Shown: positions 7,722 through 15,875 of the stretch, piece after piece
How the letters are laid out: each line of letters begins with the position of its first letter
Numbering within the stretch: the stretch's first letter is position 1
DNA from: Patescibacteria group bacterium
GTDB taxonomy: Bacteria; Patescibacteriota; JABMPQ01
Reading direction: 5' to 3'
Length of the DNA: 64,000 nucleotides
Assembly: GCA_041749335.1 (NCBI GenBank)
Contig: JBGTBM010000010.1
Span: 68,533-132,532, forward strand
Translations under genes and position numbers: made by a program
The notes under the pieces: generated by a model
Seen by the model: the letters and a program-made list of their open reading frames with translations, nothing else
Told to the model about the DNA's origin: nothing
Database searches by the model: none

Positions 7722-9521
7722 CTAATTTTTCTTAACTTTCCGCTCCGCCTTAATCCGATCATTCTTAGTTAAATATTTTTTTCGCAGTCTAATATTTTTG
7801 GGAGTAATTTCCAGATATTCATCATCGCTCATTACGCTCATCCCCCGCTCCAGCGTCATTTCCAAAGGCGGCGTCAGTCTAATCGCTTCATCCGATCCCG
7901 AAGCGCGCATATTAGTCAATTGCTTACCTTTAATCGGGTTAACCGCTAAATCGTTTCCCTTGGAAACATTGCCGATCACCATGCCTTCATACACTTCGGT
8001 AGTAGCGCCGATATACAAAGAGCCTCGCTCTTGCAAATTATAAAGAGAAAATCCCAAGGCCTTGCCGGTCTCCATCGATACCATAGAACCGACCTGTTTT
8101 TTATCTATATCGCCCACATAAGGTTTAAATCCCACTACGCGTGAATACATAATCCCTTCCCCGCGGGTATCTACCACAAAATCATTGCGATAGCCTAAAA
8201 GTCCGCGCGTGGGCATATCAAAAATCATTTTAGTATTGCCGTGTTCCGGCTGCATATTCACCATATTGCCTTTTCTTTTAGACATTTTTTCAATAATGCC
8301 GCCTGACATTTCATTTGGCACAATAATGGTTACTTCCTCAAAAGGTTCCAGTTTTTTGCCTGCTTCTTCCTTAATAATAACATTAGGCTGGGATATCTGC
8401 AGTTCGTAGCCTTCACGCCGCATATTTTCCAAAAGAATAGCGATGTGCATTTCACCTCGTCCCGATACTTGATAATGATCCGTGGAAGAAAAATCAATTT
8501 TTAATCCAACGTTTATTTCCAGCTCTTTTTCCAAACGTTCCCTAATTTGCCGATTGGTTACAAACTTGCCTTCTCGGCCAGCGAAAGGTGAATTATTGAC
8601 TAAGAAATTTAGAGTAATGGTCGGCTCATCAATGGAAATCGCCGGTAGTGCTTCCTGGCTTTCATCTTCACAAATTGTTTCGCCGATATAAATATCCGGC
8701 AGTCCCGCCACCATAATAATATCCCCGGCTCCGGCCTCCTGAACCTCTTTTTTGTTCAATCCTTCAAAAGTAAATAATTTGGTAATTTTTCCACTTCTAG
8801 TCTCGCCGGTTATGCTTTTTATTTTAACATTGGAGGTAGCGGCAATCTTCCCTTGATAAATGCGGCAAACCGCTAATCTTCCCAAGTAATTATCATACCC
8901 CAGATTAAAAGGCTGAATTAGCATTTTTTTTGCGCTGGCCTCTGCGCTGGATGCTACCGACACTTCCGCCACTATCATATCCAAAAGCGGAGTAAGATCT
9001 TTACCATCATCCTCCAACTTTAATTTCGCGATTCCCTGCTTGGCAATCGCATAAACCACCTTAAAATCCAGCTGTTCATCATTGGCTCCCAAATCCAAAA
9101 ATAATTCATATACTTTTTCTACCGCCTCTGCTGGAGCGGCCGCCGGCTTATCGATCTTATTAATCACTACAATCGGCTTCAACCCCAATTCCAGCGATTT
9201 CCTTAAGACAAACTTGGTTTGCGGCATGGGACCTTCTTGCGCGTCCACTACCAAAAGCACGCAATCAATTGAACGAAGCACGCGCTCCACCTCTGAACCA
9301 AAATCAGCGTGTCCCGGGGTATCCACAATATTAATCTTTCCGCCCTTATAAAGCACGGAGGTATTTTTAGAATAAATTGTAATGCCTCGCTCTTGTTCAA
9401 GATCATTGCTATCCATACTGACGGTATCGTCCGACATGCCTGTTTGCTGCATCAAAGCATCGGTCAATTTGGTTTTGCCGTGATCAACATGAGCGATAAT
9501 GGCGATATTTCTAATATCCAT
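7722..9521 (-). CDS. typA: Translational GTPase TypA/BipA.
   Basis: G1 AHVDHGKT and G3 DTPGH motifs, NKIDK, and the EF-G-like domain architecture over 599 aa. Confidence 0.9.
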
Positions 9522-13876: not shown

Positions 13877-14902
13877 TTATTGCCCAGCCAATTGCCCGCA
13901 AGCTCCTTTTATTTCCCCGCCCAGACTTTTTCTAATAGTTGCCGCTATTTTTTTTTCTAATAAATAATCCTTAAATATTTTTATTTTTTTATCCGGCGAT
14001 GGTTGATAATCATTACCTGCGATATTATAGCTAATTAAATTCACATGCAGCAAATAATAATTTTTAAATGTTTTTAGATATTCAATTAATTTTTTAGCGT
14101 CTTCCAAGTTATCATTTATTCCATTAAGCATAATATATTCGATAAATATTTTACGCTTAGTAATATCAAGATACTGTTCCAGAGCTCCTTTTAATTTAGC
14201 CAAATTATACTTACGATTTATCGGCATATAGCGGCTCCGTTTTTCATCATCCGCGAAATGCAGCGACAATGCGAGATTAATTTGAGGAAATTTTTTGCCT
14301 AATTCAATAATTTTATCCGGAATGCCGGAAGTTGATACCGAAATACTGCGCGCGCCATAACCAAACAAATCATGGTTCATTAAATTTTTAAGGCTTTCGG
14401 CAACATTTTCCCAATTCATTAAGGGCTCGCCCATGCCCATGTAAACAATATTGCTAAAATTACCGAATATTTTTTCCTTTTTTAAAAATTGTCTCCAAAA
14501 CAATACCTGATCGGTTATTTCTTCCGAGGTGAGATTTCTTTTAATCCCCTGTCTGCCGGTAGCGCAAAAATTACATTTAAGCGCGCATCCAACCTGAGTG
14601 GAAATACAGGCCGACCATGTTTTAGGTTTAATAGAAATCAATACTGTTTCTATACATAAACCATCATTTAATTTTAAAAGGGCTTTGATACTATCATGGT
14701 TTTTTGCAGACAAAACATCTACTACAGCAAAGGAAAGTATGTTTATTTCTTGAGCTAATTTTTCCCTTAATTCTGTTGGAATATTTTTTATATCTGAAAA
14801 TTTATCTATATTATTCTGATAGATTGCTTGTTTTATTTGCCTTAAGCGGTATTTCGGCTGCCCTAAGCCATTTAATAATTTCTCTAATTTTATACTATCC
14901 AT
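13877..14902 (-). CDS. rlmN: Radical-SAM 23S rRNA m2A2503 methyltransferase RlmN (also a tRNA m2A37 methyltransferase).
   Basis: CxxxCxxC cluster GCALKCNFCATG and the RlmN/Cfr-type C-terminus ...GACGQL. Confidence 0.85.
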   Translation of the reverse strand: MDSIKLEKLLNGLGQPKYRLRQIKQAIYQNNIDKFSDIKNIPTELREKLAQEINILSFAVVDVLSAKNHDSIKALLKLNDGLCIETVLISIKPKTWSACISTQVGCALKCNFCATGRQGIKRNLTSEEITDQVLFWRQFLKKEKIFGNFSNIVYMGMGEPLMNWENVAESLKNLMNHDLFGYGARSISVSTSGIPDKIIELGKKFPQINLALSLHFADDEKRSRYMPINRKYNLAKLKGALEQYLDITKRKIFIEYIMLNGINDNLEDAKKLIEYLKTFKNYYLLHVNLISYNIAGNDYQPSPDKKIKIFKDYLLEKKIAATIRKSLGGEIKGACGQLAGQ

Positions 14903-15057
14903 TGCAATAAATCTTATTTTCTACTCTTATATTATATCTTACCAAAAAATAATCTTCCTAGCTATATTCATAATAATTTTTAATAATTCAAATATAATAT
15001 TTATTGATAATGATTGACTATTATTAATAAAAATAATATTATATTTATTAATAGCAT

Positions 15058-15124
15058 TCGGGGATCGTCTAATGGTAGGACACCTGGTTTTCCTGCCTGC
15101 CGCAGGCTGGGGTCCAGGCTAATC
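15058..15124 (+). pseudogene. Truncated, anticodon-disrupted 5' copy of tRNA-Gln. It retains the acceptor 5' strand, D arm and anticodon stem, carries a 19-nt hairpin insert inside the anticodon, and has no T arm.
   Basis: 15058-15091 is identical (34/34) to 15387-15420 of the intact tRNA. The extra CCTGCCTGCCGCAGGCTGG sits between anticodon nucleotides 35 and 36. Identity resumes over GGTCCAGGC(T)AATC and is then lost. Confidence 0.6.
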
Positions 15125-15127
15125 ACT

Positions 15128-15382
15128 ATGAAATATTATGTTTACATTTTAATATCTGCTGCTAAAAGTAATTGGAGCTATGTTGGCCAAACCGATGATA
15201 TTAATCGCAGAATAAAGGAGCACAATAGCGGCAAAGTGCGATCTACTAAAGGATATATGCCGCTTAAGTGCATCTATTGCGAATTATTTAGTCAAAGAAA
15301 AAGGTCGCTTGCGAGAGAAAAATATTTGAAATCCGGCATTGGCAGAGATGAAAAATATACAATCATTACCAAAAATCATTGA
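15128..15382 (+). CDS. GIY-YIG nuclease-family protein, YhbQ/UPF0213-like (84 aa).
   Basis: MKYYVYILIS...WSYVGQTDDINRRIKEHNSGK matches the GIY-YIG signature, with a conserved Arg and Glu/Asn downstream. The ORF track's upstream extension (15014) would translate through the pseudo-tRNA and was rejected. Confidence 0.8.
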   Translation: MKYYVYILISAAKSNWSYVGQTDDINRRIKEHNSGKVRSTKGYMPLKCIYCELFSQRKRSLAREKYLKSGIGRDEKYTIITKNH

Positions 15383-15386
15383 TTAT

Positions 15387-15457
15387 TCGGGGATCGTCTA
15401 ATGGTAGGACACCTGGTTTTGGTCCAGGCAATCGGGGTTCGAGTCCCTGTCCCCGAG
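15387..15457 (+). tRNA. tRNA-Gln (anticodon UUG). CCA is not encoded.
   Basis: Manual cloverleaf: acceptor UCGGGGA/UCCCCGA, D stem GUCU/GGAC, anticodon stem CCUGG/CCAGG with loop UUUUGGU (anticodon UUG), T stem CGGGG/CCCUG with loop UUCGAGU, and discriminator G. Confidence 0.85.
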
Positions 15458-15514
15458 TTTTTTATTAAACTTGATATTTAAAACAAATTTGCTATACTTA
15501 TTTGACTAGACCTG

Positions 15515-15567
15515 TCTAATCGATAAATCGTTGTTGATTTATCGATCCAGCGGGTCTGGTTTTTTTA
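15515..15567 (+). terminator. Rho-independent terminator after tRNA-Gln, the third copy of the shared terminator motif.
   Basis: CTAGACC...ATCGATAAATCGTTGTTGATTTATCGAT...GGGTCTGG followed by TTTTTTT. Confidence 0.6.
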
Positions 15568-15593
15568 AAAAAATAACTGCGATAATCGCAGTT

Positions 15594-15875
15594 TTATGAT
15601 ACTTTTTTCCACAACAACACAATTTTATCCGAATGCGTAGAAATTTTTATTTTGGATAAAGAACCGGCCTTGATTACAGCTCCTTTTTTTAAAAGACGAG
15701 CCGAACTCTTACTTAAGATATTTATTTCGATATTTTTATCGGAATAATTATCTAAATGGATTAAGTGAGATCCATCTCTATTGATATAAATATCAACATC
15801 AAAAAGGTTTTCAGCATTAAAGCCAAGCATTTGACCAAAACTGATTTCAATTCTATTCCATACCTTTATTTCCAT
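15594..15875 (-). CDS. Hypothetical small protein.
   Basis: 93-aa ORF with no recognisable motif. Confidence 0.4.
   Translation of the reverse strand: MEIKVWNRIEISFGQMLGFNAENLFDVDIYINRDGSHLIHLDNYSDKNIEINILSKSSARLLKKGAVIKAGSLSKIKISTHSDKIVLLWKKVS

Follow-up and report, generated by a model that had tools for sequence, protein, structure and literature searches.

What is a small nuclease gene doing inside a tRNA gene, and how does the tRNA survive it? The question is raised by a locus in a 64-kb stretch of a Patescibacteria group genome (contig JBGTBM010000010.1; hereafter the window, on whose whole length locus positions are numbered), where the 5′ part of tRNA-Gln(UUG) occurs twice and an open reading frame (ORF) for a GIY-YIG nuclease lies between the two copies. 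A sequence-only reading of the window had proposed the footprint of a small mobile insertion. We found that a 329-nucleotide (nt) cassette interrupts the tRNA-Gln gene between anticodon nucleotides 35 and 36 and itself supplies tRNA nt 1-35 at its downstream end: there the tRNA is made whole again, while upstream only a truncated pseudo-tRNA remains. The locus is one member of a large, apparently undescribed cassette family that occurs in several bacterial phyla. Our preferred explanation, to which we assign a probability of about 0.55, is a selfish, homology-targeted cassette whose invasion the tRNA genes survive.

A repeat search of the window returned an exact 36-nt direct repeat (15056-15091 and 15385-15420, spacing 329) made up of two leader nucleotides (AT) and tRNA-Gln(UUG) nt 1-35. 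The duplication reported earlier is borne out and is 2 nt longer than described, by the AT before nt 1. Only the downstream copy is a tRNA. ARAGORN called tRNA-Gln(UUG) at 15386-15458 as the sole tRNA of the 64 kb, and the Rfam tRNA model scored 59.4 bits at 15387-15457; this intact gene (15387-15457, forward strand) has U1-A72 plus G73, folds as a cloverleaf at minimum free energy (MFE), and has its first 34 bases (tRNA nt 1-35) inside the downstream repeat copy. The upstream copy is a truncated pseudo-tRNA, with no ARAGORN tRNA call and no Rfam tRNA match even at E ≤ 10. Its order, by reading of the sequence, is the arm of two leader nt and tRNA nt 1-35 (15056-15091, forward strand, 100% identical to 15385-15420), then a 19-nt GC-rich hairpin, CCTGCCTGCCGCAGGCTGG (15092-15110, no strand), at anticodon nt 35/36, and then a remnant of tRNA nt 36-48 (15111-15124, forward strand) composed of GGTCCAGGC, one additional T and AATC. 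Beyond this point similarity to the tRNA ends, with no T arm or acceptor 3′ strand, exactly as had been described. The remnant was recognized by alignment to the tRNA and by a second, 9-nt repeat, GGTCCAGGC, at 15111-15119 and 15421-15429.

The empty orthologous site whose search the sequence-only reading had recommended was found in a close relative. In a Logan contig (L241; loci are given L numbers), RlmN shares 94% amino acid identity with the window RlmN, the gene order is that of the window (glycosyltransferase, 94-aa ORF, tRNA-Gln, rlmN), and a single tRNA-Gln is identical to the window tRNA across 73 nt. Pairwise alignment, in which the flanks are ~90% identical (an estimate from the printed alignment), gave one clean gap: L241 is without exactly the 329 nt that separate the repeat copies. 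At this site the two genomes, whose tRNAs are identical, differ by precisely this stretch of 329 nt, which makes the cassette a presence/absence polymorphism within a tRNA gene, at anticodon 35|36. We place it at 15092-15420 (forward strand), which is one register, the edge being slidable inside the 36-nt repeat; it then runs palindrome (the hairpin), tRNA 36-48 remnant, ORF, 2 nt, leader AT and tRNA nt 1-35. The idea of a small mobile insertion in a tRNA gains from the empty site; the idea that the 5′ half was the target needs revision, since the insertion point is the anticodon loop and the second 5′ half is one that the cassette brings along. The same arrangement without repeats, which would speak against an insertion, was not seen in relatives, which carry repeats.

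The two copies could also be read as a split or intron-containing tRNA, in which the upstream 5′ half is spliced to the downstream 3′ half and the ORF is intronic. Joining 15091 to 15421 does yield the same tRNA sequence, and group I introns occur in patescibacterial tRNA genes (PMC13011429) and at locus L117 of our set. However, the group I intron model (Intron_gpI), which scored 86 bits in L117 as a positive control, gave no match in 14800-15700 at E ≤ 10. Just ~40 nt are non-coding, the downstream copy is already complete, the L241 gene is uninterrupted, and the hairpin, as read in the sequence, has no bulge-helix-bulge geometry. With no ribozyme signal and no bulge-helix-bulge by eye, group I and archaeal-type introns were rejected, and a split tRNA is effectively refuted. 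An integrase-mediated integrative element was rejected as well: the 329-nt element holds no tyrosine or serine recombinase, the GIY-YIG gene being its sole ORF, and the neighbours, rlmN (just upstream, on the opposite strand), a 93-aa ORF and a glycosyltransferase, are common to L241.

The nuclease ORF (15128-15382, forward strand, 84 aa) matches the Pfam GIY-YIG domain PF01541 over residues 2-69 (E = 9.6e-15, 55.1 bits against a cut-off of 22.6). A profile search against PDB sequences returned 1zg2 (BH0048) at 2.6e-10 and 1ywl (EF2693) at 3.4e-7, with SLX1 next. An AlphaFold2 (AF2) model with a predicted local distance difference test (pLDDT) score of 95.5 showed the three-stranded sheet and helices of the GIY-YIG alpha/beta fold, which Foldseek matched to 1zg2 and Slx1 nuclease domains at template-modelling (TM) scores of 0.64-0.71; I-TevI and UvrC were matched only at E > 1. 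Pfam and the model agree on one domain, with no auxiliary domain and no attached sequence-reading DNA-binding module. The protein, earlier described as a YhbQ-like GIY-YIG nuclease of 84 aa, is on these sequence and structure matches predicted to be a minimal Slx1/UPF0213 (YhbQ-like) nuclease, not a member of the UvrC or homing-endonuclease branch. Y6, Y18, G20, R28, H32 and E64 are invariant in an alignment of 33 sequences that includes the window protein, which keeps all family-invariant residues; we presume their catalytic roles by analogy with I-TevI and Slx1. In the published classification, the minimal domain form makes up a 'prokaryotic Slx1' cluster with a predicted repair role and unreported genomic linkage (Dunin-Horkawicz et al. 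2006, PMC1564403).

The reading frame is, as had been noted, open straight through the pseudo-tRNA, back to a TTG at 15014 (122 aa), where the database gene call P0001 (122 aa) starts; homologues, however, begin at the ATG. Because they do, the 38-aa N-terminal extension is best taken as read-through of the pseudo-tRNA and hairpin. The closest ORF relatives (60-68% identity) come from Parcubacteria and other Patescibacteria. Purifying selection acts on the ORF, with a ratio of nonsynonymous to synonymous substitutions (dN/dS) of 0.03-0.25 in syntenic pairs. Among 1.84 billion cluster representatives, 13,959 matched the family profile at E ≤ 1e-3 and 2,510 still did so at E ≤ 1e-10; the gene calls for many of them start 20-50 aa further upstream, probably by reading through pseudo-tRNA and palindrome. 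Two other affiliations were rejected. A PADLOC scan for defence systems gave just weak, partial matches to the GIY motif region, and a phage origin was set aside on near-absence from viral collections, with no tblastn match in 50,697 GenBank phages, one relative in IMG/VR and no PHROG.

To place the locus, we scanned one genome per species with the profile and confirmed 423 relatives; family counts are from the best 80 of these 423. The sequence-only reading had asked whether other YhbQ-like genes are tRNA-linked, and at 76 of the 80 loci a same-strand tRNA gene (Gln, Arg or Leu) lies in the 1.5-kb flanks. It abuts or overlaps the ORF at 68 of the 80. At 55 loci the tRNA starts -113 to +20 nt from the ORF end, mostly -22 to +12 (12 Gln, 25 Arg, 18 Leu), and at 13 it ends within ~105 nt upstream of the ORF. 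The other side of the ORF usually holds a partial or whole pseudo-copy of the same tRNA. The resulting architectures are pseudo-tRNA with palindrome, ORF, tRNA, and its mirror, tRNA, ORF, pseudo-tRNA with palindrome. The nearest relatives have a pseudo-tRNA-Gln with a 20-nt palindrome at 35|36, the ORF and an intact tRNA-Gln. Some members of the family duplicate the 5′ part of the tRNA and others the 3′ part, and the 5′ footprint is not the unusual one-off it had been thought to be.

Hosts are Patescibacteria, Saccharibacteria, many Bacteroidota orders, Ignavibacteria and single metagenome-assembled genomes (MAGs) of other phyla. Cultivable carriers include Pedobacter cryophilus (L075), Algoriphagus kandeliae (L034) and Ekhidna lutea (L070). 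The protein tree tracks the tRNA amino-acid class, with Gln, Leu and Arg clades, and isoacceptors, both orientations and several insertion points are interspersed within the protein clades. The ORF is conserved at orthologous positions across genera. Gln-clade ORFs normally end S-G/R/E-I-V-stop, in codons formed by tRNA nt 1-15, and the ORF and tRNA overlap by 14 nt at 11 of 13 genome loci of this clade (ARAGORN coordinates). The window ORF is an exception, without the C-terminal S-G-I-V, and a 6-nt difference gives a TGA 4 nt before the tRNA. Tandem arrays of the cassette unit occur at L024, L037, L025, L038 and L076. At L069, L023 and L038 the arms of the pseudo-tRNA were not copied from the neighbouring tRNA, and a cassette can therefore bring arms with it. 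Rfam 15 assigned no known RNA family to the pseudo-tRNA or palindrome of the window and 20 related loci.

Some family loci stood out in other respects. On L117 (480-1470, a contig classed as viral), two selfish elements share one tRNA gene: a palindrome/GIY-YIG cassette at the D-loop, with the pseudo-copy upstream, and, in the downstream copy, an anticodon-loop group I intron (1182-1416) whose ORF looks HNH-type by eye (Cys pairs and a CANCH motif). In a Sunxiuqinia MAG, 1,815 nt comprising the upstream flank, the cassette and tRNA-Arg(ACG) recur at 99.4% identity on two contigs (L064 and L068), and the similarity ends exactly at the tRNA 3′ end, which points to a larger segment, duplicated or mobile, with the tRNA as its boundary.

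The GC-rich hairpin, described earlier as an insert, is a decayed copy of a 20-bp palindrome, CCTGCCTGCCGGCAGGCAGG, that recurs across phyla in nearly all such cassettes. The palindrome is exact at 40 of the 80 loci and present in the pseudo-copy region with up to 4 errors at 74, against a chance expectation that we estimate at <1. It lies within ~100 nt of the ORF at 74 of the 80, on both sides in several (L011, L030, L037, L038 and L075), and its place depends on the orientation: with the intact tRNA downstream it precedes the start codon by 20-60 nt, and with the intact tRNA upstream it comes shortly past the stop codon. The window CCTGCCTGCCGCAGGCTGG differs from CCTGCCTGCCGGCAGGCAGG by one deleted central base and one A>T change, and Gln-clade relatives carry the canonical palindrome at the same tRNA position. 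No other palindrome-like site was found in the 64-kb window at up to 5 errors. Nested and multiple palindrome copies were found in family loci. We also saw further GC-rich palindromic inserts in pseudo-tRNA D-loops (L013 and L060, upstream of the ORF at ~1400-1450; L003:2853-2905; L006, L014, L015 and L026), and a 38-nt palindrome, CCCGCCTCGACTCGCGGAGCTCGTCGACGCGAGGCGGG, occupies the same position in a Kuenenbacteria locus and a Saccharibacteria locus.

Insertion points are precise, without target duplication, and fall in tRNA loops or at loop-stem junctions. They map to 35|36 in 11 of 12 mapped Gln loci; to 21|22 (20 loci), 56|57 (5 loci), 38|39 and 8|9 in Arg; and to 13|14 or 14|15 (10 loci), 22|23 (8), 43|44 (4) and 53|54 (5) in Leu. 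A rival explanation is a classical protein-directed homing endonuclease: the 84-aa enzyme, perhaps as a dimer, would read the tRNA DNA sequence around the insertion point and cut cassette-free genes, and the palindrome would be no more than a site-destroying spacer in the pseudo-copy. This agrees with the correspondence between protein clades and tRNA amino-acid classes, with the near-constant 35|36 of the Gln clade, with the presence/absence polymorphism at a conserved site in the window and L241, and with the occurrence of free-standing GIY-YIG homing enzymes in a tRNA cluster, e.g., T4 SegB (PMC2330249). However, the enzyme has no DNA-binding domain and its fold is nearest to the structure-specific Slx1, not to I-TevI, and both the Leu and the Arg insertion points vary inside one clade. 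Moreover, the intact target is regenerated beside the gene, the rebuilt tRNA being 100% identical to the L241 tRNA and only the pseudo-copy interrupted, and a spacer alone would not remain identical across phyla. We hold this explanation to be unlikely.

Between orthologous loci with ORFs that have diverged to a synonymous distance (dS) of 0.3-0.6, the palindrome remains exact and keeps its place in the tRNA, and neutral decay cannot account for this. Because the variants of the palindrome are neither compensated nor biased to one strand (15 G.T versus 18 A.C, p = 0.73), the conservation looks more like duplex-DNA sequence recognition than RNA-hairpin upkeep. A divergent protein clade (L019, L020, L022 and L028) has its own palindrome variant, CCTGTCTGCCGACAGGCAGA, which hints at protein-palindrome co-evolution.

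The same variants bear on an RNA-level device, in which pseudo-tRNA and hairpin would form a leader or trailer that stabilizes or processes the nuclease mRNA or, in the boldest form, a guide RNA, bound to the protein by its hairpin and directed to tRNA genes by its tRNA-derived flanks. The position of the hairpin before the start codon in most loci, or just past the stop in the mirror type, would suit such a device, as would tRNA-derived flanks that change with the target around a constant hairpin, a protein too small for reading long DNA sequences, and a full-length pseudo-tRNA with palindrome at L017 that folds well (z = -4.2). However, selection on an RNA hairpin was rejected on the balanced G.T and A.C counts, the lack of compensation and a window leader that folds no better than shuffles (z = 0.06). 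Pseudo-tRNA truncation points also vary, and we know of no RNA-guided GIY-YIG enzyme. We consider a device of this kind very improbable.

We propose, for a selfish, homology-targeted cassette, the following course of events. The cassette would find tRNA genes mainly via its own tRNA-derived homology arms; its Slx1-like, structure-specific nuclease would make or process a break or branched intermediate, which would be repaired by recombination between the interrupted tRNA copy of the cassette and the host tRNA. Starting from the form [tRNA part A - palindrome - tRNA part B - ORF], exchange inside A (5′ of the palindrome) would give [A-palindrome-B′]-ORF-[tRNA], the window type, and exchange inside B (3′ of the palindrome) would give [tRNA]-ORF-[A′-palindrome-B], the mirror type. 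The palindrome would most likely be the cognate DNA site of the nuclease and, by splitting the direct repeat, should lower loss through repeat recombination. The regenerated tRNA would be open to another hit, and tandem arrays fit because recombination could be repeated at the regenerated target; recombination between the repeats would remove the cassette cleanly and leave an empty site like that of L241. The window cassette may be ageing, its palindrome having two defects and its ORF-tRNA overlap being gone.

The layout also makes it plausible that the nuclease mRNA rides on the tRNA transcript as a passenger and is cut free by RNase P. The promoter-like region announced 5′ of the upstream copy was located by consensus scan as TTGACT-17-TATTAT (15014-15042, forward strand), and an identical sequence stands 5′ of the single tRNA-Gln in L241. 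Because it is common to the window and the empty site, it is probably the native tRNA-Gln promoter, and it would here drive the pseudo-tRNA, the nuclease ORF and the tRNA. Passenger expression is plausible because this promoter still lies upstream and only 4 nt separate the stop of the ORF from the tRNA; in most relatives, an RNase P cut would take off the stop codon.

Palindromes also occur away from cassettes. Exact scans with the 20-mer matched 35 IMG/VR stretches and, among metagenome contigs, at least 80 loci. The association runs in one direction only: a palindrome accompanies almost all cassettes, whereas most palindromes stand without a cassette nearby. Solo palindromes (loci of phage-like and bacterial contigs, L086-L200) are mostly intergenic, in contigs of 29-71% GC, and clustering of 891 neighbouring ORFs revealed no common gene beside them. 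They show no target-site duplications and a slight, unconvincing enrichment of flanking stems, on which grounds solo insertion into hairpin loops or with target duplication was rejected. Up to 6 exact copies lie on one 29-kb viral contig (L106, L113 and L114, for example, share one viral contig), and three lie within 220 nt at L180:987-1203. In AT-rich contigs resembling the candidate phyla radiation (CPR), the palindrome stands in frame in long ORFs and is read as LPAGRQ (L175:8200-8905 on the reverse strand, L149:944, L157:1401, L129:5257, L150:4699 and L158:6281). By motif reading, the palindrome-bearing ORFs resemble UvrC, PurH, PheS and a glycoside hydrolase, and a LigA homologue confirmed against the PDB has two palindrome insertions relative to Escherichia coli LigA. 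In a separate observation, two tRNA-Met genes of viral contigs (L110:2239-2330 and L087:~8570-8660) carry an exact palindrome in the variable region; the one on L110 is still called, as a 92-nt tRNA by ARAGORN and with 50 bits by Rfam, and this tRNA may accommodate the hairpin in the manner of a long variable arm.

The wider distribution allows a broader proposal, namely that the minimal Slx1-like nuclease and CCTGCCTGCCGGCAGGCAGG make up a hitherto unrecognized two-part mobile system. Its autonomous unit, in tRNA genes, would be guided by the arms it carries (through DNA homology or as RNA guide) and not by a protein that reads sequence, and the nuclease would also mobilize, or bias the repair of, solo palindromes in AT-rich genomes, phage contigs and housekeeping genes, where they read LPAGRQ. 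We offer this tentatively, as possible and on balance doubtful.

Several observations weigh against a selfish cassette. Among the viral and metagenome matches listed, a nuclease gene of this family lies within 400 nt at only ~5 of 127 palindrome-anchored sites. The near-absence of the family from viral collections leaves the transfer route without an evident candidate. The 329-nt difference may be a gain in the window or a precise loss in L241, since five further RlmN-anchored loci (~60% identity) were not syntenic. Every mechanistic step, including the role of the palindrome, is one that we infer. The rebuilt tRNA is a perfect copy of the presumed target, and a tRNA-directed nuclease would keep cutting its own host, a weak point common to all nuclease-driven models. 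Finally, a gene useful to the host might well show the same strong purifying selection and the same long vertical persistence in syntenic lineages.

The last of these points leads to a host-beneficial Slx1-like repair nuclease kept in tRNA operons, where it might act, e.g., on stalled forks or R-loops at highly transcribed tRNA genes. The tRNA duplications and palindromes would then be by-products of local breakage and repair, and the empty site of L241 an inter-repeat deletion. The low dN/dS and the orthologous positions kept across genera are in line with this, the 36-nt repeat could mediate precise loss, Slx1 maintains tandem ribosomal DNA (PMC1564403), and the window cassette, with its nearest ORF relative at 68% identity, bears no sign of recent arrival. 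What stays unexplained is an ORF wedged between a tRNA and a pseudo-copy interrupted by the 20-mer, in two orientations, three tRNA classes and unrelated phyla, and likewise the tandem arrays, the foreign pseudo-tRNA arms and the patchiness between close relatives. We judge a host-beneficial origin to be distinctly unlikely, and continue to favour the selfish, homology-targeted cassette.

Downstream of the tRNA, a terminator scan found a long hairpin with a T-run (15503-15566, forward strand; MFE -32 kcal/mol, z = -7.9). It is a 24-bp, interrupted hairpin that is more conserved in L241 than the surrounding spacer and shows two wobble-compatible changes. It is likely the terminator of the tRNA-Gln transcription unit, which is the simplest reading; alternatively, it could be a small RNA. 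A second promoter-like site, TTGATA-16-TATACT with an upstream TG (15471-15498), stands just 5′ of this hairpin. In a patescibacterial relative, an RVT_1 reverse-transcriptase gene lies directly upstream of rlmN (L246:1514-2467); it is unrelated to the cassette.

The finding is related to known kinds of element, homing-type nuclease cassettes and tRNA-targeting insertions, of which the window copy is a somewhat decayed member. As with the T4 Seg genes (SegB lies in a tRNA cluster; PMC2330249), a small GIY-YIG gene sits beside or within tRNA genes, is patchy among close relatives and is presumed to spread by break-induced recombination with flank co-conversion. Seg enzymes, however, have DNA-binding regions and belong to the homing-endonuclease/UvrC branch, whereas the cassette protein is a bare Slx1/UPF0213 domain, and Seg genes neither duplicate nor regenerate their target and have no conserved palindrome. 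Integrative elements are said to insert in tRNA genes and to restore them by an element-borne segment, an account reportedly given by Williams in Nucleic Acids Research in 2002. Like tRNA-targeting prophages, integrative and conjugative elements and islands, the cassette inserts inside a tRNA gene, often in the anticodon loop, rebuilds it from an element-borne segment and leaves the displaced partial copy as a direct repeat; these elements use integrases and almost always replace the 3′ part, whereas the cassette is 329 nt long, without integrase, and its family duplicates either the 5′ or the 3′ part.

Short palindromes accompany other systems. The transposases associated with repetitive extragenic palindromes (REPs), RAYTs, are HUH/Y1 enzymes, and REPs carry a GTAG/CGTC tag. 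The likeness to REP/RAYT lies in one small nuclease-type gene flanked by a short GC-rich palindrome that is also dispersed in genomes; the difference is that the cassette enzyme is GIY-YIG, the palindrome is 20 bp, untagged and identical across phyla, and the gene is inside a tRNA gene. Rickettsia palindromic elements and the GC-rich palindromes of fungal mitochondria (Neurospora PstI palindromes, which flank tRNA genes, and yeast GC clusters) are likewise short and GC-rich, in AT-rich genomes, beside tRNA genes and in frame within housekeeping genes. They differ in sequence, size and host, the in-frame palindrome of our family being only ~20 nt, and to our knowledge none is tied to an Slx1-like nuclease cassette in a tRNA gene.

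The protein itself shares its minimal domain with the prokaryotic Slx1/UPF0213 proteins, which are its best sequence and fold matches (E. coli YhbQ, Bacillus halodurans BH0048 = 1zg2 and Enterococcus faecalis EF2693 = 1ywl), and like the UPF0213 cluster it has no auxiliary domain and no C-terminal Asn region (PMC1564403). UPF0213 proteins have been discussed as DNA-repair enzymes (PMC1564403); tRNA linkage, pseudo-tRNA and palindrome go unmentioned in the literature searched. We found no paper on the exact palindrome, on tRNA linkage of UPF0213/YhbQ/COG2827 or on pseudo-tRNA-flanked GIY-YIG genes, in a search whose coverage was without most subscription journals.

The cassettes matter for annotation, as gene callers often extend their ORFs across pseudo-tRNAs or let them overlap tRNAs, and tRNA finders miss or miscall palindrome-interrupted copies. 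One 20-mer conserved across phyla is also a handle for experiments on palindrome-directed cleavage and biased repair, both in CPR bacteria, for which few genetic tools exist, and in cultivable Bacteroidota. If our explanation is true, a selfish element can occupy an essential single-copy gene without killing it and with neither ribozyme nor integrase, by means of a replacement gene half and a nuclease of ~80-85 aa. The widespread, uncharacterized bacterial Slx1/UPF0213 nucleases would thereby also gain a biological role.

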